A program made the translations under genes and the position numbers. A DNA stretch of 64,000 bases, taken from NCBI GenBank assembly GCA_964495425.1, contig CAZBVG010000003.1:64518-128517 (forward strand), given 5' to 3'. How positions within the stretch are numbered: position 1 is the stretch's first letter; each line of letters opens with the position of its first letter. The notes below the pieces were generated by a model. That model made no database searches. It saw only the letters and a program-made list of their open reading frames with translations, and was not told the DNA's origin. The DNA comes from an uncultured Candidatus Saccharibacteria bacterium. Lineage in GTDB: Bacteria; Patescibacteriota; Minisyncoccia; Phycocordibacterales; UBA6065. This document shows positions 3,803-62,630 of the stretch, piece after piece.

Positions 3803-3809
3803 TTGTCTG

Positions 3810-3882
3810 TGCTTGGGGCCGGGCTCGAACCGGCGACCCCCTCCTCTTCAGGGAGATGCTCTACCAACTGAGCTACCCAAGC
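3810..3882 (-). tRNA. tRNA-Phe (anticodon GAA)
   Basis: Reverse complement folds as GCTTGGG-TA-GCTC-AGTTGGTA-GAGC-A-TCTCC-CTGAAGA-GGAGG-GGGTC-GCCGG-TTCGAGC-CCGGC-CCCAAGC-A. Cloverleaf has a 7-bp acceptor stem; CCA is not encoded. Confidence 0.85.
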
Positions 3883-4142: not shown

Positions 4143-4355
4143 GGGTGTAAGTATACCCAAAAAAGGCTCAAAAACAAGATTCTGTGTCTCTATACGACGC
4201 GGCTCGAACCTATTTTCAAGGACAGTCGATGCCGTGACCCCTCGGGGAATCGAACTGGAGTGGGTATCCCCAGAGGTATCCCCGCCTGGGGATACCCTGT
4301 CGTCCTGATCGGTGGTTGCAGGCCTTCGCGGCGTCGAGTTTTCCACAGCGGCAGC

Positions 4356-4426
4356 TCCCCCCGACTGGTTGCTCGTATCAGCGACCACGGGTTTACGGCT
4401 TCACCACGCGCTTTCTTCCGGTCGAG
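4356..4426. repeat. Left 71-bp terminal inverted repeat (IR-L)
   Basis: tccccccgactggttgctcgtatcagcgaccacgggtttacggcttcaccacgcgctttcttccggtcgag equals the reverse complement of 5870-5940 at 71/71 positions. Confidence 0.85.
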
Positions 4427-4437
4427 GTGACGGGTCT

Positions 4438-4466
4438 TTGCGCGCCATGCGCGACACTGGTATGAT
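4438..4466 (+). promoter_or_regulatory. Sigma70-like promoter TTGCGC-17-TATGAT directly upstream of the recombinase ATG (likely leaderless transcript)
   Basis: -35 ttgcgc at 4438-4443; 17-nt spacer; -10 tatgat at 4461-4466. The ATG at 4475 is only 9 nt after the -10 element, and there is no room for an SD sequence. Confidence 0.35.
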
Positions 4467-4474
4467 GCGCACGC

Positions 4475-5986
4475 ATGGCAGCAGACACGAAATATTTCAT
4501 ATACCTCCGAAAATCGACAGACCGTGACGACATGCAGACTCTCTCGATAGAGTCGCAGCGTGACGAGCTAACCGAGTTCGTAAAGCGACTAGATCTAAAC
4601 GTCGTCGGTGAATTCGAGGATCGCAGGTCAGCGAAGCGCCCTGGCCGGCCCGAATTTAGCGAAATGCTTCGGAGGATCGAGCGGGGCGAAGCCAACGGCA
4701 TCGTCGCCTGGGCGCCCGACCGTCTCTCACGCAACGCGCGCGACGGCGGAACCATCATCGACATGCTCGACACCGAGACGCTCACCGATCTCAAGTTTCC
4801 GACGTTCTGGTTCGAGAACACCGCGCAGGGCCGCCAGATGCTCGCGAACGCGTTCATCCAATCGAAATACTACGTCGACGACCTGAGCCAGAACACCAAG
4901 CGCGGACTCAGGAAGAAGGTGCGCCTAGGCATTTGCCCGACCTTTGCGCCCGTCGGGTATCTCAACGATCTGAAAACGAAGCAGTGGGTGGTGGACGAGA
5001 CTCGCCGTGGCGCGATTGTTTCGCTCTTCGAACTTCACGCAACCGGTGAGAGCACCCTTGAACAGGACCGCGCTTATCTCGACTCAATAGGGTTCAAGAT
5101 GCGGCCGACCAAGAAGAACCCCGACGGTCGGCCGATAAGCCGCACAGAGGTGGCCATGATCCTGCACGAACCGGCATACTACGGCCATTTCATGTATTGC
5201 GGCGAGCTGCACGAGGGAAAGCACCAGCCGATCATCTCGAAGACGCTCTATGATCGCGTGCAGGAGGTATTCGCGCAGCACTGGCCATCCCTCCCCAAGC
5301 AGCGCCGCGACAAGCCGTATCTCGGCCTTTTGAAGTGCGCTGAATGCGGCGGCGCAATCACCGCAGAGGTCCAGAAAGGCCACGTGTATTATCGTTGCAC
5401 GAAAAAGAGCAAAAACGTTCGGTGCTCTCAGCCGTTCCTGCGAGGCGAAGACCTCGACGCGGAAGTAGCCTCGGTGATTGCACCGTATGGCCTAACCGCT
5501 GAAGCCGGCGCGGACATGCTGGCGAGGCTCGACCAGGAAGAGGGGGCGTCGAAGGCGACGCGCAAAGCCACAATCGAGCGCCTGCAAAACGCGGCCGCGC
5601 AGGTTACCCGAAGCATCAATATGCTCCTAGACATGGTCCTCTCCGGCGAGATCAGTCGCGACATCTTCACGGGTAAGAAGGCGACACTTCTGAGCGAGAA
5701 GAGGCTCTTGGAGGAACAGATTGCCGCGGTCTCCAAAGGCCGCATACCATGGCTCGAACCGATGCGTAACTGGGTTTTCACCGCTCTACAGGTAGGCGAA
5801 ACTGCCACTGTTGGCACGCCGAACCAGCGTCGCGCTCTCGCCTCAGAAATCTTCGGCTCGAACCTTGTTCTCGACCGGAAGAAAGCGCGTGGTGAAGCCG
5901 TAAACCCGTGGTCGCTGATACGAGCAACCAGTCGGGGGGATACACTGGTGCCCTCAGCAGGAATCGAACCTACATCTTCTCCTTAG
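4475..5986 (+). CDS. Large serine recombinase (resolvase-domain N-terminus + recombinase domain + zinc ribbon)
   Basis: YLRKSTDRDDMQTLSIESQ carries the catalytic-Ser motif of the resolvase/invertase fold. DRLSRN is present. Central recombinase domain. Zinc ribbon C-x2-C...YYRC-x11-C (KCAECGG...YYRCTKKSKNVRCS). A coiled-coil tail follows. 503 aa. Confidence 0.85.
   Translation: MAADTKYFIYLRKSTDRDDMQTLSIESQRDELTEFVKRLDLNVVGEFEDRRSAKRPGRPEFSEMLRRIERGEANGIVAWAPDRLSRNARDGGTIIDMLDTETLTDLKFPTFWFENTAQGRQMLANAFIQSKYYVDDLSQNTKRGLRKKVRLGICPTFAPVGYLNDLKTKQWVVDETRRGAIVSLFELHATGESTLEQDRAYLDSIGFKMRPTKKNPDGRPISRTEVAMILHEPAYYGHFMYCGELHEGKHQPIISKTLYDRVQEVFAQHWPSLPKQRRDKPYLGLLKCAECGGAITAEVQKGHVYYRCTKKSKNVRCSQPFLRGEDLDAEVASVIAPYGLTAEAGADMLARLDQEEGASKATRKATIERLQNAAAQVTRSINMLLDMVLSGEISRDIFTGKKATLLSEKRLLEEQIAAVSKGRIPWLEPMRNWVFTALQVGETATVGTPNQRRALASEIFGSNLVLDRKKARGEAVNPWSLIRATSRGDTLVPSAGIEPTSSP
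5870..5940. repeat. Right 71-bp terminal inverted repeat (IR-R), overlapping the recombinase 3' end
   Basis: Exact reverse complement of 4356-4426; ends 5 nt before the CCA end of tRNA-Arg. Confidence 0.85.
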
Positions 5987-6020
5987 GACGGAGCTGCTCT
6001 ATCCATTGAGCTATGAAGGC
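5946..6020 (-). tRNA. tRNA-Arg (anticodon CCT), CCA encoded
   Basis: Reverse complement GCCTTCA-TA-GCTC-AATGGATA-GAGC-A-GCTCC-GTCCTAA-GGAGA-AGAT-GTAGG-TTCGATT-CCTGC-TGAGGGC-A-CCA. Anticodon-stem pair 27-43 is a G.A mismatch. Confidence 0.8.
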
Positions 6021-6050
6021 AGTGTGATCAATCTACCATTCGGACACCTT

Positions 6051-23016: not shown

Positions 23017-23289
23017 ATGCTCCTAAAAATTACTGGCGATTGGCAATGCAAGACAGAAGATGTGGTAAGAATTCTTCGCGGAAATCTTGCTTCAGAAGTA
23101 AAAGGTCAGGTACACATCATTTGTACGCGAGAGTATATTGAAGGAGACTTCAAAACTCTCGTCGAAGTGTATGGTGTGTCCGATTTCGATCACACTTTGC
23201 AAGCAAGTATTGCAAAAGCGGTCGAAGCGATGCCGAATTTCTTTAAAAGGCCAAAAGTATTGTTCCTCCAGAGCCCCATCACAGCGTGA
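23017..23289 (+). CDS. Hypothetical small protein (about 90 aa)
   Basis: ORF MLLKITGDWQCKTEDVVRILRGN... ends at a good intrinsic terminator (23272-23304). No recognisable motif. Confidence 0.3.
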   Translation: MLLKITGDWQCKTEDVVRILRGNLASEVKGQVHIICTREYIEGDFKTLVEVYGVSDFDHTLQASIAKAVEAMPNFFKRPKVLFLQSPITA

Positions 23290-23304
23290 TTGGGGCTTTT
23301 TTAT
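23272..23304 (+). terminator. Rho-independent terminator (agccccatcac-agc-gtgattggggct + T7)
   Basis: 11-bp stem with one bulge, followed by ttttttatttt. Confidence 0.6.
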
Positions 23305-23324
23305 TTTCATGTATACTCTTAGGC

Positions 23325-23957
23325 ATGATATTAATCGGATTAGGAAACCCGGGCGGAGAATATGAGGGTACACGACATAACGTTGGTCGTGAGGCAGTAA
23401 TGAAATTTGCGCAGAAATGTAAGTTCGATGATTTTGAATTTGATAAGAAAAAAGCTGCGCTCGTAACAAGTGGAAAGGTCGGTAAGACAGAGACCACACT
23501 TATTTTGCCTGAGACATTCATGAATAAGTCCGGTGATGCGGTTGGAAAATATGCGAAAGGGGCAAAGAAGGTAAAAAATGCACAAGGGAAATCGGTAAAA
23601 GCATATCCACACATAATTGTGGTGCATGATGATCTTGATATTCCATTGGGAAAAGCAAAGATGTCATGGGACAAGAGCGCAGGAGGTCACAAGGGCGTAG
23701 ATTCTGTTATAAAAGCACTTGGCACTCAGGCGTTTTTCCGAATTCGTATCGGTATTACTCCTACTACCGCAAAAGGTGCGCTTAAAAAACTTGATCACGA
23801 AACCATTACAGAAAATTTTATTGTTGCAGAGTTTAAGGATAAAGAAGCAGAAGAACTTAAATCAGTGTTAAAGAAAGTTGTTGAGTGTCTTGAGATGGCT
23901 GTTTCAGATTCTCCTGAGCGAGCGATGAGCGAGTACAACGCCATCTTTAATAAATAG
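23325..23957 (+). CDS. pth: Peptidyl-tRNA hydrolase
   Basis: MILIGLGNPGGEYEGTRHNVG, HDDLDIPLGK and GGHKG/NGV motifs of Pth. Start trimmed to MILIGLGNPG. Confidence 0.85.
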   Translation: MILIGLGNPGGEYEGTRHNVGREAVMKFAQKCKFDDFEFDKKKAALVTSGKVGKTETTLILPETFMNKSGDAVGKYAKGAKKVKNAQGKSVKAYPHIIVVHDDLDIPLGKAKMSWDKSAGGHKGVDSVIKALGTQAFFRIRIGITPTTAKGALKKLDHETITENFIVAEFKDKEAEELKSVLKKVVECLEMAVSDSPERAMSEYNAIFNK

Positions 23958-23995: not shown

Positions 23996-24208
23996 ATGAA
24001 CTGGTATCAGCAGTTTGCTCTTTCGTGTGCAGTTATCGCTATCTGCATGATTGTCTTCCTTTTTGGGATGTGCATGATTTTTAAGAGACAAACCTTAAAG
24101 GGTTGTGGAGTAGTTCTTGCGGCGCTTGCTCTTTTAATGGTGAGCACGGATTTTCTGAGAAATATGAAAGGCTACAGAAATCCTTTGATTATGAAAACTG
24201 AAAAATAA
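23996..24208 (+). CDS. Hypothetical small two-TM membrane protein
   Basis: 70 aa with two hydrophobic helices, followed by terminator aaccgctctgagcggttttt at 24210-24236. Confidence 0.3.
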   Translation: MNWYQQFALSCAVIAICMIVFLFGMCMIFKRQTLKGCGVVLAALALLMVSTDFLRNMKGYRNPLIMKTEK

Positions 24209-24240
24209 ACCGCTCTGAGCGGTTTTTATTTTTTTAAATA

Positions 24241-24740
24241 AAAAAGACGCTCCATATGAAGCTTCTCGAAAGAAGCGATGGAACGCCATGGTTCAAATAA
24301 AGAACAAGTAAGTCGGGCGGCGCGCCCAAGATTGTGAGGTAGTCAGTACCTTGGGAAATCCCCTCGATTTCCGGCCTTGAGCGCGCCGCCGTCCTTATTC
24401 AGACCCCAGTCCTGTGCCAGCAGCCTTGCAGAGCATGGAGGATCAAGGGCTTTCATACTCTATACCTAAGGTATTGTAGAGTCAATAAAAGGAAAATCGC
24501 TTCAAAAGAAGCGATTGTGTGCCGCGGTGGCGGGGTGGCAGTGCTGCCACCCCGCCAGTTATGTCGCGGCGGTCGGCGTTCGCCTCATACCGTTTGTCGG
24601 CAGAGGAAATACTAAAAGAACAGAAGCTCTGGGCAGAGGCGGCATCACGGGACACCGCCTCTGCTGTTGTCGAGAGACACGGCAGTATGGCTACGCTGCC
24701 TGTGCGTAATACATACTAACCAGTGGTTATTTTTTGTCAA
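24241..24740. ncRNA. Candidate structured non-coding RNA(s), family unassigned
   Basis: A 500-nt non-coding stretch that is visibly GC-rich against an AT-rich genome. It holds several long hairpins: 15-bp stem 24309-24390, aatcgcttc/gaagcgatt 24496-24517, ggcggggtggca/tgccaccccgcc 24529-24556, and gcagaggcgg/ccgcctctgc 24633-24664. Flanked by terminators. By eye no RNase P P4 or tmRNA T-arm consensus, and only partial SRP-like AGCAGCC...GCAGAG. Confidence 0.35.
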
Positions 24741-24741
24741 A

Positions 24742-24770
24742 CAAAAAACCGCCGAAGCGGTTTTTGAGAT
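24742..24770. terminator. Bidirectional terminator (aaaaaaccgccgaagcggttttt)
   Basis: Perfect hairpin with A/T runs on both sides, at the convergent 3' ends of the ncRNA region and rpsA. Confidence 0.65.
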
Positions 24771-25888
24771 TATTTCTTGTCTCCAGCGAATGCGAGAGTC
24801 ATTTTCTGATTATTCGCATCGAAGAGAGTGATCTTGAAAGGATATACCTTTCCAAGTTCGAGGTGGGCTCGGAGTTTCTCGTCAGAACCGAATTCAGAAA
24901 CATGAACGAGACCCGCGATACCTTCTTCAATAGAAGCAAGTGCGCCATGGCGGTTAAACTTGATAACAACACCCTTAACAACCATGTCCTTCTTGTACTT
25001 CTTGCCAGCCTCAACCCATGGATTTGGCTTGAGTGCCTTAATAGAGAGGGAAACTTTACCTTCCTTTACTTCGATTACGCGAACGCGAACTTTGTCGCCA
25101 ACCTTGAATCGAGTCTTTGGATCCTCAACGAGTGCCCAGTCGATTTCAGAGATGTGAACAAGACCTTCGAGACCCTCATCGATCTTAACGAAGACGCCGA
25201 AGTCAACCATGCCGGTAACTTTGCCTTCTACTTCATCGCCAACTTTGAACTTTGCTACTGCAACTGCCTTGTCTGCACCTGCAACAGAATTCTTTTCAGA
25301 GAAGATAAGTTTTCCTTCCTTAGGGAATGCACCGATGATAGAAACCGCAAGCTTTGTACCAACGAGTTTCTTGAGTTCTTCGAGAATTCGATCCTTGTCA
25401 CCGTCCTGTACTCGAGGATAGTGCTCAGGTTTAAGCTGTGAAGCTGGGAGGAAGCCCTGGATGCCCTGCCATTCGATAATAAGACCACCTTTGTTTGCTT
25501 CCTTGATAGGGAGTTCGAGGATTGCCTTGGTTGCGATAGCCTGTTCAGCCTCAGTCCAGATCAAAGCCTGTCGTGCTTCCTTGAGAGAAAGTTCGATGTA
25601 GCCATCCTTGTTTGAAGGATCAACAACTTTGGCTGAAACTTTGTCGCCAATGTTTATCTTTTTAATAACATCTCGAGCGAGAATGTATTCTCGACCGTAA
25701 ATGATACCGGTACCGAAAGGAGGAAGGTCAATAAAGACGCCTTTCTTGTCGATAGCGATGACGGTGCCTTCTACAAGGTCACCAGCGTTTGGTGGGGTAA
25801 CAGAATCAGCAAGAAACTTGCCCATAAGGGTATCTGGTTTCTTTTCTTCTGGTGCAACCACCTTTTTTATTTCTTTAAGAATTGCCAT
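24770..25888 (-). CDS. rpsA: 30S ribosomal protein S1 (short, four S1 domains)
   Basis: Repeated S1 OB-fold motifs (GDLVEGTVIAIDKKGVFIDL; GDEVEGKVTGMVDFGVFVKI; GDKVRVRVIEV). 372 aa. Confidence 0.8.
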   Translation of the reverse strand: MAILKEIKKVVAPEEKKPDTLMGKFLADSVTPPNAGDLVEGTVIAIDKKGVFIDLPPFGTGIIYGREYILARDVIKKINIGDKVSAKVVDPSNKDGYIELSLKEARQALIWTEAEQAIATKAILELPIKEANKGGLIIEWQGIQGFLPASQLKPEHYPRVQDGDKDRILEELKKLVGTKLAVSIIGAFPKEGKLIFSEKNSVAGADKAVAVAKFKVGDEVEGKVTGMVDFGVFVKIDEGLEGLVHISEIDWALVEDPKTRFKVGDKVRVRVIEVKEGKVSLSIKALKPNPWVEAGKKYKKDMVVKGVVIKFNRHGALASIEEGIAGLVHVSEFGSDEKLRAHLELGKVYPFKITLFDANNQKMTLAFAGDKK

Positions 25889-61542: not shown

Positions 61543-61596
61543 ACGGCTCAATAGAGCCGTTTTTCATATTTTTCATGTAATTTGGGTCAAGAGTAC

Positions 61597-61624
61597 TTGA
61601 CTTATTATTTAAGTATGCTATGAT
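61597..61624 (+). promoter_or_regulatory. Strong sigma70-like promoter TTGACT-16-TATGAT
   Basis: -35 cttgact at 61597-61602 and -10 tatgat at 61619-61624. It drives transcription into a 560-nt GC-rich untranslated region ahead of the ORF at 62205. Confidence 0.5.
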
Positions 61625-61639
61625 ACTGGCATAACAGTT

Positions 61640-62204
61640 CCTTGATTTCGTGTTTCGTTGTTGGCTTCATATGAAGTCGACGCACGTTGTTATTGAACTG
61701 TAGGAGTCTACCTCGCCCATGAATAATGGTCCCCCGCAGAATCGCAGCTCCAACCTCTTGTGCGTCAGTGTCCTCAACGCCGGCCGCGGCGACGTCAGCT
61801 AATCGCTGACGTCGGCCTTAACCTTTCCGTTATGATTCAGCAGACCGCGTGATCGCCGGCACAAGTTGCCGGTGGAAAGAGATTACGAGGAAAGAAAACC
61901 TGAAAAGCCACTGCAGGCATGAGTATTCGTAGATTGTAGGTGTCAGGACTTGATCCTGAAACGAACCGACGATCAAAGTTTTTATCACAATTTTTTAGAA
62001 AAAAAGTGTGAGCCTAGAGGAAGCAGAGCCTCCAGAGGAAGTTGTTTCTACAAGGACACTAAACAAATCAGAAATACGTCCATGTGGTTTCAAAAAGACC
62101 TCAACCCACCAAAGCAATTTGGTGGGTTCTTTGTTTCTGGACAACTTATATACAAAAGAGTATGGTTGGGGCGGAATAGATTTTCAACATCAAACACTCT
62201 CATT
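61640..62204 (+). ncRNA. Long GC-rich structured leader or independent ncRNA candidate
   Basis: Lies downstream of a consensus-like promoter and has no credible ORF. Local GC is elevated and hairpins include gacgtcagc-taatc-gctgacgtc at 61793-61815. Ends at a hypothetical ORF. Confidence 0.3.
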
Positions 62205-62630
62205 ATGACGAAACCAAAAAGTGAAAGAGTTGAATGGCTCATTCGAGCTCAGCGAAACATGACCCACAAAAATGTGGGTAGGACGTTGGCAGGGAATCAG
62301 GACGAACTTTCTGATCCCGGAGCACTTCGCTTTGAAGTGAAAACAAATGATGGTGTGTGGAATATGTGGAGTTGCGGTGAACGCAATTTTGCTGATTCCA
62401 AAGCCATCGTCTTGGATTTCCTGGGACAGGGTGAGGTTGTGTTTCTCTACAAGAAAATTGGGGAGGCATATCCTTTTCGTTTTGAAGATGAGGAAATCAA
62501 GCAGGCGATGCAAAGCATCGGCGCACGTGAGGTACCTCTGCCCAGCCCAAAGAAGAGTAAAGCTCACAAGGCGGCAGAAAAGCGTCTCAAGGAACTTCAA
62601 AAGAAGCGCAAGCATCAGGGCGTGCACTAG
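62205..62630 (+). CDS. Hypothetical protein (141 aa, Lys-rich C-terminus)
   Basis: ORF-track ORF trimmed to MTKPKSERVEWLIRAQ... No motif recognised. Terminator caggtgga-ataca-tccacctg + T6 at 62641-62668. Confidence 0.35.
   Translation: MTKPKSERVEWLIRAQRNMTHKNVGRTLAGNQDELSDPGALRFEVKTNDGVWNMWSCGERNFADSKAIVLDFLGQGEVVFLYKKIGEAYPFRFEDEEIKQAMQSIGAREVPLPSPKKSKAHKAAEKRLKELQKKRKHQGVH

Follow-up and report, generated by a model that had tools for sequence, protein, structure and literature searches.

What is encoded by the GC-rich, hairpin-dense island of about 500 nt that separates pth from rpsA in a 64,000-nucleotide stretch of bacterial DNA (contig CAZBVG010000003.1, positions 64,518 to 128,517; hereafter the window)? 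The island lies between two convergent transcription units: pth and a 70-amino-acid (aa) membrane-protein open reading frame (ORF) on the plus strand, and rpsA, the gene for ribosomal protein S1, on the minus strand. The neighboring S1 has its best named matches in Paceibacteria, a group of the candidate phyla radiation (CPR), and these are 'Ca. Taylorbacteria'-like. An initial annotation had described the island as one large structured RNA of unassigned family. We propose instead, with a probability of about 0.75 and on the basis of sequence comparison, that it comprises two tandem small RNA (sRNA) genes of ~215-220 nt each, both on the minus (rpsA) strand.

The general description of the island was confirmed. 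With a crude call of ORFs of 70 aa or more, the interval 24209-24769 (561 nt) was the largest ORF-free gap in the window, as had been claimed, and GC content in 200-nt windows reached 0.52-0.605 across 24300-24700 versus ~0.37-0.44 in the flanks. All of the inverted repeats listed for the island were present. The whole island folded at -220.2 kcal/mol on the minus strand (z = -10.4) and at -209 kcal/mol on the plus strand (z = -6.8), in both cases beyond dinucleotide shuffles, and no reading frame within it was conserved; its designation as structured and non-coding thus stands. The initial annotation gave no strand; the evidence favours the minus strand as the one that would be transcribed. 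The helices were more stable in that orientation (clamp 1, -26.7 vs -23.5 kcal/mol; clamp 2, -46.3 vs -43.8; terminator 2, -20.0 vs -11.6; minus vs plus in each case), because both clamps and terminator 2 contain G-U pairs when read on the minus strand, and these positions are C-A mismatches in the opposite orientation. In addition, a consensus scan placed both sigma-70-like promoters and the internal terminators on the minus strand.

Read along the minus strand, the first predicted unit begins where rpsA ends. The rpsA intrinsic terminator (24744-24765), which is bidirectional in form, has a U-tract that reaches the -35 box of promoter P1 (24740-24713), a junction that recurs in relatives. 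P1 consists of TTGACA (24740-24735), a 16-nt spacer and TAGTAT (24718-24713), with 10 of 12 consensus matches, and a similar sequence (TTGACA, 16 or 17 nt, then TAGTAT or TATCGT) occupies the equivalent place in three related loci (L177, L179 and L181; loci are designated by L numbers). From a predicted start at ~24706, RNA1 would extend ~220 nt to 24484; folded alone on the minus strand it gave z = -7.5, and it has homologues in L177, L179, L181 and L185. Its elements follow in the order 5' hairpin, clamp hairpin, GUUCUUU, two more hairpins, one of which contains a 13-bp GC stem, and terminator. The clamp (24633-24664, GCAGAGGCGGUGUC / GAUGCCGCCUCUGC) has 14 bp and a 4-nt loop; the 10-bp stem originally described here is perfect (24633-24642 / 24655-24664) and extends to 14 bp on the minus strand. 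Next comes a BoxA-like motif (24612-24623, CUGUUCUUUUAG) with its GUUCUUU core at 24621-24615. The 3' hairpin (24520-24566) consists of the GC stem with a GUGC loop (24528-24557), which is present as claimed but measures 13 rather than 12 bp, and an outer GCCGCG/CGCGGC extension; in L177 its pairing is kept by changes on both sides (GGCGGGGUGGCAG/CUGCCACCCCGCC to GGCGGGGCGGCC/GGCCGCCCCGCC). The RNA1 terminator (24484-24516) reads AAUCGCUUC-UUUU-GAAGCGAUU followed by UUCCUUUUAUU, and its stem (24516-24495) is the 9-bp stem with a 4-nt loop that had been reported.

The second unit repeats this arrangement. Promoter P2 (24485-24457, minus strand) comprises TTGACT (24485-24480), a 17-nt spacer and TAGAGT (24462-24457), and both its TTGACT and its -10 box are kept in L081, L177, L179 and L181. 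As at P1, the U-tract of the terminator before it contains or directly precedes the start of the -35 box, a junction that is also seen in relatives. RNA2 would run ~215 nt from a predicted start at ~24450 to ~24237 (z = -4.5 alone on the minus strand), with a variable 5' hairpin, a clamp that closes a three-way junction, GUUCUUU and a terminator. The clamp (24309-24397, GGCGGCGCGCUCAAGG / UCUUGGGCGCGCCGCC) has 16 bp, one of them G-U, and encloses two inner hairpins, GGAAAUC/GAUUUCC and AGGUA/UACCU. This corresponds to the nested stem of the initial annotation, whose arms we found at 24309-24330 and 24376-24397 around the GGAAATC/GATTTCC hairpin; described there as a perfect 15-bp stem, it is continuous on the minus strand with one G-U pair, and the plus strand has a C-A mismatch at that place. 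The BoxA-like motif of RNA2 (UUGUUCUUUAUUUGAA) lies at 24292-24307 with its GUUCUUU core at 24305-24299. The terminator (24240-24288, minus strand) is formed by GGCGUUCCAU...AUGGAGCGUC with an inner GCUUCU/AGAAGC hairpin, followed by UUUUUU; its hairpin spans 24288-24246, and the call of the consensus scan (~24262-24249) is the inner part of it. The far border of the island is a hairpin at 24207-24225 that has the form of a terminator on both strands and follows the 70-aa ORF, so that, together with 24744-24765, terminator-like hairpins do flank the island on both sides, as claimed. The clamp hairpin followed by GUUCUUU, which proved to be the island's conserved feature, was absent from the earlier description.

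The two predicted units have the generic attributes of sRNA genes: each has its own predicted promoter, no conserved ORF, an intrinsic terminator and conservation in relatives. Their terminators also have in common a repeat, D1 (CGCUUCUUU(U/C)GA(G)AAGCG), which supports an origin by tandem duplication. That RNA1 and RNA2 are paralogues, and hence sibling sRNAs, is the best explanation of their predicted architecture.

Comparison with relatives bears directly on the division into two units. Relatives were fetched through S1 (80 species-representative genomes and 80 metagenome contigs), and closer strains were reached via the 90% protein cluster of S1. In L081, whose S1 is 98% identical to that of the window, RNA1 is exactly missing, and RNA2 is retained with its promoter, clamp arms, motif and terminator. 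Both units are found in L177 and L179, three tandem units in each of L181, L182 and L185, and one unit, or at least one, in L174, L084 and L085. Because unit number varies from 1 to 3 among relatives, the units behave as modular promoter-RNA-terminator cassettes, which fits poorly with one 500-nt RNA. Such a molecule, either a divergent signal recognition particle (SRP) RNA, 6S RNA or RNase P RNA or a large lineage-specific non-coding RNA, was the original proposal. It could draw on the fact that the whole island folds far better than shuffles, and read-through of the weak internal terminator, with its UUCCUUUUAUU tail, could lengthen the transcript. The internal terminator and second promoter, the presence of only the second half in L081 and of three units in L181, and the lack of any match to Rfam (at the gathering threshold or with E up to 10) or to transfer-messenger RNA (tmRNA) all argue against it; moreover, an essential RNA would not be expected to be replaced wholesale between genomes whose S1 proteins are 93-98% identical. 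We therefore regard a single RNA as very improbable.

Searches for known RNA classes gave a consistent picture. At the gathering threshold, Rfam found only 12 tRNAs in the whole window. In E-value mode (E up to 10) on 24100-24850, only chance terminator look-alikes were returned: no covariance-model match to SRP RNA (RF00169/RF01854), and, for the 6S and CsrB/Rsm families, only a 21-nt terminator match to rsmX. ARAGORN detected no tmRNA in the island or in relatives, Rfam in both modes on 30 related loci gave only tRNAs and chance matches, and the RNase P, 6S and tmRNA models matched neither the island nor its relatives. The earlier statement that no RNase P RNA or tmRNA is recognisable was thus correct. 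The weak match to SRP domain IV (AGCAGCC...GCAGAG) did not survive: it lies in a plus-strand 5' hairpin whose place is taken by unrelated sequence in L081, L179 and L181. Beyond being GC-rich, structured, stand-alone RNA genes, the island units have nothing in common with SRP RNA, RNase P RNA and tmRNA, and they differ from these in their two-unit arrangement and in being unconserved even at S1 identities of 93-98%. In the 80 species-representative loci, neither blastn and nhmmer searches with the island nor Rfam returned a match; the island is therefore not a housekeeping RNA. Homologues do occur in closer strains, and the lineage specificity raised as an option in the initial annotation is borne out. 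A fast-evolving, Paceibacteria-specific family that is missing from Rfam is, for the sequences compared here, the best explanation, and we found no description of regulatory sRNAs in CPR bacteria (Patescibacteria) in the literature searched.

We asked which parts of the units are conserved. Comparison of the window with L081 gave an overall identity of 92.7% for rpsA and of 80% for its third codon positions, whereas the last (3') 93 nt of RNA2 are 93.5% identical and thus exceed this near-neutral yardstick. For the same two loci, neither the RNA2 clamp interior nor the 5' hairpin could be aligned, yet the interior still forms two hairpins (GGAAAUC/GAUUUCC in the window vs GGUAAC/GUUACC in L081, and AGGUA/UACCU vs GGUAG/CUACC). 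L177 is a mosaic, since it joins a window-type 5' hairpin to an L081-type interior. Using RNAalifold on MAFFT alignments, we obtained 29 predicted pairs for RNA2 (alignment A4, six sequences), of which 6 were changed on both sides, including two in the terminator stem (U-A to C-G and C-G to U-A); for RNA1, 18 of 57 predicted pairs were changed on both sides. Compensatory changes are thus present in both alignments, although their counts are noisy, given that only 4-6 sequences entered alignments that were not structure-aware. Ten clamp pairs of the A4 consensus were invariant in all six RNA2 sequences.

No reading frame is preserved among the window, L081, L177 and L179, where indels and segment replacements break all frames. 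This bears on the possibility that the island is a missed protein gene, or a cis-acting 3' untranslated region or terminator complex that serves the convergent genes. The island does contain ORFs of 57-66 aa, the homologous island of L177 is spanned by a 179-aa ORF in the public annotation, and each flanking terminator has a bidirectional form. Pfam, however, gave no match to the island ORFs, and many relatives manage with 35-nt gaps and one terminator; this explanation has only the slightest chance of being right. The 64-aa and 66-aa ORFs that had been called GC-driven both exist, lack Pfam matches and are not kept in relatives. The 179-aa hypothetical protein (L177, 1731-2270, locus minus strand, opposite to the predicted RNAs) likewise has no Pfam match, its equivalent frame in the window is split into the 64-aa and 66-aa ORFs, and it is probably a spurious, GC-driven call. 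Island homologues are thus sometimes annotated as hypothetical proteins, which a covariance model of the module described below would correct.

Across the family, the common element is a GC-rich clamp of 10-16 bp, a linker of 7-21 nt and an invariant GUUCUUU (19 members, 16 distinct). Clamp arms are gene-specific in sequence, with CCGCC frequent in the 3' arm, and loops range from 3 to 57 nt. The same module occurs downstream of rpsA in L001, L004 and L088 (S1 88-92% identical) and in L094 (75%), and upstream of rpsA, on the same strand, in L075, L109, L128 and L154 (66-70%). We scanned 969 kb of non-redundant sequence with a descriptor that required a clamp of at least 8 bp with at least 6 G-C pairs followed by GTTCTTT within 30 nt. 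On the S1 strand, 22 of 111 GTTCTTT occurrences satisfied it, versus 2 of 157 on the other strand, and within the 64-kb window the only matches were the two island copies. GTTCTTT ranked first among 42 permutations of the 7-mer; the runner-up was GTTCTTT shifted by one base, and the others gave 1-12 matches, mostly terminator U-runs. A strict promoter lay within 420 nt upstream of 12 of the 22 elements (vs 66 of 400 random positions), and a terminator within 260 nt downstream of 20 of the 22 (vs 158 of 400). In RNA2-type members the motif is unpaired or lies within a non-conserved 4-bp helix. Together, these comparisons show the clamp and GUUCUUU to be the only invariant content of the putative family, apparently kept under selection amid turnover.

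Could the island nevertheless be non-functional? The convergent S1/pth gap might be a permissive dumping ground, in which decaying rRNA-leader-like or mobile copies would accumulate and owe their hairpins to descent and GC content. The convergent S1/pth pair is itself widely conserved, and the intervening gap varies from 6 to 2730 bp, with ~35 bp in many genomes. Gaps of this kind also host an ORF that, judged by reading its sequence, resembles IS30-family transposases (L090, ~4320-5280) and long near-perfect hairpins, or inverted repeats, around a small ORF (L087, 1938-2065 and ~2590-2720); L001 contains exact 19- to 20-nt copies of 16S rRNA segments; and GC-rich foreign DNA is present in the window, for example the serine recombinase region at 4165-6025. 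Decay is difficult to reconcile with the retention of promoter boxes, clamp pairing, the 7-mer and terminators while the intervening sequence was replaced, with a 3' part of RNA2 that is more conserved than rpsA third codon positions, and with a strand bias of 22 to 2. Nor did the island show similarity to phage or plasmid sequences or, for two island patterns, to IMG/VR sequences, and a mobile-element origin was rejected on the same searches. We consider a non-functional island improbable.

Other occupants of these gaps were also observed. Among L001-L163, the S1/pth gaps contain various unrelated small membrane-protein ORFs. In L001 (4150-4650), the first of two tandem units downstream of rpsA contains sense 16S rRNA segments in scrambled order, among them an exact 20-mer (E. 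coli 16S 413-432) and an exact 19-mer (259-277) that forms a complete helix-11-like hairpin; a helix-11-like 'GGGGUUACGGCCCACCAAGGC' also occurs in L088 (~2110-2170). These 16S-like segments may represent rRNA mimicry or a recombination relic. In L164 (2885-3275) and L168 (1360-1715), whose S1 proteins are 93% identical to that of the window, the S1-pth gaps have in common an RNA-like element of ~350 nt with its own promoter, a closing stem GGUGGCGC...GCGCCACC, conserved blocks GAACGAAAUGUCG and GGGAAUCCGCCCGCUAGCCUC, a 3' CCCUUUCCAACC tract and a terminator. Neither Rfam nor ARAGORN gave a match to this element, and its sequence shows no relationship to that of the window island; the CGAAAU block at its 5' end is also present in L004 and L088.

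What could the invariant motif do? Of the 9 positions in the BoxA core of E. coli rrn operons, UGCUCUUUA, 8 are matched by the window motif UGUUCUUUA; the exception is position 3 (C to U), a change that is tolerated by the published gamma-proteobacterial consensus. That consensus is GYTCTTTAANA, and its authors note that their search left non-coding RNAs out (Baniulyte et al. 2017, PMC5725501). The NusB-NusE complex reads 8 nt; the E. coli element is U1 G2 C3 U4 C5 U6 U7 U8 A9, that of Aquifex is GGCUCCUUG, the critical bases are G2, C5, U/C6 and U8, and the complex has a contiguous double-stranded RNA site that was proposed for the BoxB stem (Stagno et al. 2011, PMC3177189). All four critical positions (G2, C5, U6 and U8) are present in UGUUCUUUA. 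The core N-G-Y-U-C-Y-U-U-R is found in RNA2 (UGUUCUUUA), and GUUCUUU is invariant in the 19 members; in the RNA1 core, UGUUCUUUU, position 9 is not a purine. According to PMC2176067 and PMC8632103, which cite Mogridge & Greenblatt (1998), ribosomal protein S1 itself binds BoxA specifically, and the rrnB BoxA is mentioned as having also been employed as an A/U-rich translational enhancer.

The resemblance extends to the neighboring hairpin. In the fetched E. coli rrnH leader, a hairpin (GCGAC...GUCGC) is followed by AACU and then GCUCUUUAACAA. Like the BoxB-BoxA of rRNA leaders, the island module has a promoter-proximal hairpin and, within a few nucleotides, a pyrimidine-rich 8-9-mer, which in the island may be single-stranded. 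It differs from that arrangement in its linker between hairpin and motif (7-21 nt in the island family vs ~4 nt in E. coli), in the terminator that follows the motif after ~35-160 nt, where rRNA leaders continue into long untranslated RNA, and in the packaging of its units as tandemly repeated, self-contained genes beside rpsA. BoxB-BoxA (nut-like) antitermination modules also occur upstream of CRISPR arrays and suhB. To our knowledge, earlier accounts of BoxA treat it solely as an element that acts in cis within longer transcripts. The putative sRNAs would thus be a new family, absent from Rfam, in which a BoxA-like module stands in an unprecedented stand-alone tandem context.

These likenesses suggest a model in which the units would be transcribed as small RNAs of ~220 nt that act through GUUCUUU, exposed in a BoxB/BoxA-like module. 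The motif might be bound by the very conserved readers of BoxA, the NusB-S10 heterodimer and/or ribosomal protein S1, and the RNAs might then sequester these proteins or modify the transcribing polymerase; they would be decoys or loaders, not classical antisense regulators. The output of an sRNA locus beside rpsA could in this way be coupled to the machinery of ribosome synthesis. We give even odds to the combined proposal, in which two sibling sRNA genes act through a BoxB/BoxA-like module. The involvement of BoxA proteins (NusB-S10 and/or S1) we put forward tentatively, at odds somewhat below even, and the fullest version, in which stand-alone 'BoxA sRNAs' of Paceibacteria serve as decoys or loaders in an RNA feedback from ribosomal-protein supply to rRNA transcription, is unlikely and offered as a speculation. 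As RNAs that would mimic a natural ligand and titrate an abundant regulator, the proposed decoys resemble 6S RNA and CsrB/RsmZ in mode only: the island has neither the long bulged duplex of 6S RNA nor repeated GGA loops, and each RNA carries one motif.

Several observations weigh against the combined proposal. The promoters and the starts and ends of the RNAs are predictions, and promoter-like sites are not enriched by count (2 found vs 1.4 expected in a 1.1-kb region); the case for the promoters rests on their placement and conservation, not on the number of sites. Every locus other than the window was reached through S1; only inside the 64-kb window, therefore, is the association with rpsA free of that bias. 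In 4 of 5 RNA1-type sequences, GUUCU can form a weak 5-bp hairpin with an upstream AGAR. The AANA tail of GYTCTTTAANA is not conserved in the 19 members: the bases after the motif vary (AUUUGAA, CUUUGAA, UAGUAU, CAGAAA and others), and GUUCUUUAA occurs only in L109 and L128. Established BoxA elements are found close to the 5' end of transcripts that are long and untranslated or regulated, where they prevent or promote Rho termination. The GUUCUUU motif, in comparison, lies ~75-150 nt after the predicted start, an intrinsic terminator follows ~35-160 nt further on, and that strand has no downstream gene. In the rrn leaders obtained for Bacillota and Thermomicrobium, and in those of IMG/VR loci, the sequence is GAACUUUGAAAA, CACCUUGACAA or similar. 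BoxA thus drifts from one phylum to another, and chance resemblance of a U-rich motif could account for the agreement with the E. coli core. Finally, the comparison was made with BoxA elements of other phyla: neither the window nor ~1 Mb of fetched loci contained rRNA, and IMG/VR scans gave only unrelated 16S loci. A Gram-positive BoxA of the form UGUUCUUUGAAAA was not confirmed, the fetched leaders reading GAACUUUGAAAA.

The principal rival retains the two sRNA genes and assigns GUUCUUU a different role, that of a base-pairing seed whose target sites in mRNAs would be AAAGAAC-like or purine-rich, while the clamp and terminator would do no more than stabilise the RNA. Tandem paralogous sRNAs with a common seed are a known design, exemplified by OmrA/OmrB, PrrF1/PrrF2 and LhrC1-5, and the island matches it in several ways: its units are tandem paralogues, each with a predicted promoter and Rho-independent terminator and with one short, conserved, putatively exposed motif in an otherwise diverged RNA, and their copy number differs between relatives (1-3). 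A hairpin, an exposed conserved 7-mer and an intrinsic terminator are also the typical anatomy of a base-pairing sRNA. The island differs from these siblings in lacking sequence homology to them or an Rfam match, in its CPR host, in having no targets among 64 window starts, and in a motif whose conservation outreaches the rest of the RNA. In RNAduplex comparisons with the 64 translation-initiation regions of the window, the exposed regions performed like shuffled seeds, in what is a low-power test, and the complement AAAGAA lies upstream of only 2 of the 64 starts. Moreover, the 7-mer is invariant across genomes whose S1 proteins are only 66-75% identical, amid complete turnover of the remaining RNA; for this reason a conserved partner fits better than mRNA targets. 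We judge the seed model rather unlikely, and favor the protein-binding proposal over it. In the same set of starts, as identified by the crude call, Shine-Dalgarno-like motifs were rare (GGAG, GAGG and AGGA each upstream of 2 of 64), which suggests weak Shine-Dalgarno usage in this genome.

Two further candidates were examined and rejected. A type I toxin-antitoxin pair with the 70-aa membrane ORF is contradicted by the separate terminators and non-overlapping predicted transcripts, by the retention of RNA2 without this ORF in L081 and L177, and by the absence of a homologue of the ORF from the other loci. An antisense role toward 16S rRNA was considered for the RNA2 5' hairpin, opposite which the plus strand reads GTGCCAGCAGCC (24416-24427), identical to 16S positions 515-526 (the '515F' site). 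The 12-mer is near chance expectation, and the string is present in L177 and absent from L081, L179 and L181; its identity to 16S is probably due to chance.

The proposed family has two broader implications. CPR genomes are tiny, and tandem non-coding duplicates that are retained while turning over rapidly therefore call for explanation. Should the motif prove to be a genuine BoxA, it would represent the first instance of this element in a small RNA of its own, and it would link BoxA, S10/NusB and S1, which are already connected biochemically.

The genes that border the island are pth (23286-23957, plus strand) and the 70-aa membrane ORF (23996-24208, plus strand) on one side and rpsA (24770-25888, minus strand) on the other. 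Elsewhere in the window, two more GC-rich regions were observed. The first, at 4165-6025, has a GC content of 0.60-0.68 (vs 0.44 for the window), which indicates that foreign DNA in this genome is GC-rich. It contains a 503-aa ORF (4475-5986, plus strand) that, judged by reading its N-terminal sequence, looks like a large serine recombinase and overlaps a tRNA-Arg gene (5946-6020, minus strand); a tRNA-Phe gene lies at 3809-3882. The arrangement suggests a mobile element that integrated at a tRNA gene. The second is an ORF-free island at 61543-61949 (GC up to 0.61), located upstream of an ORF at 61950-62630. It matched no Rfam family in E-value mode and lacks the GUUCUUU module. It is preceded by a terminator and a strong plus-strand promoter, TTGACT-16-TATGAT (~61598-61626), and could be a leader or a non-coding RNA.

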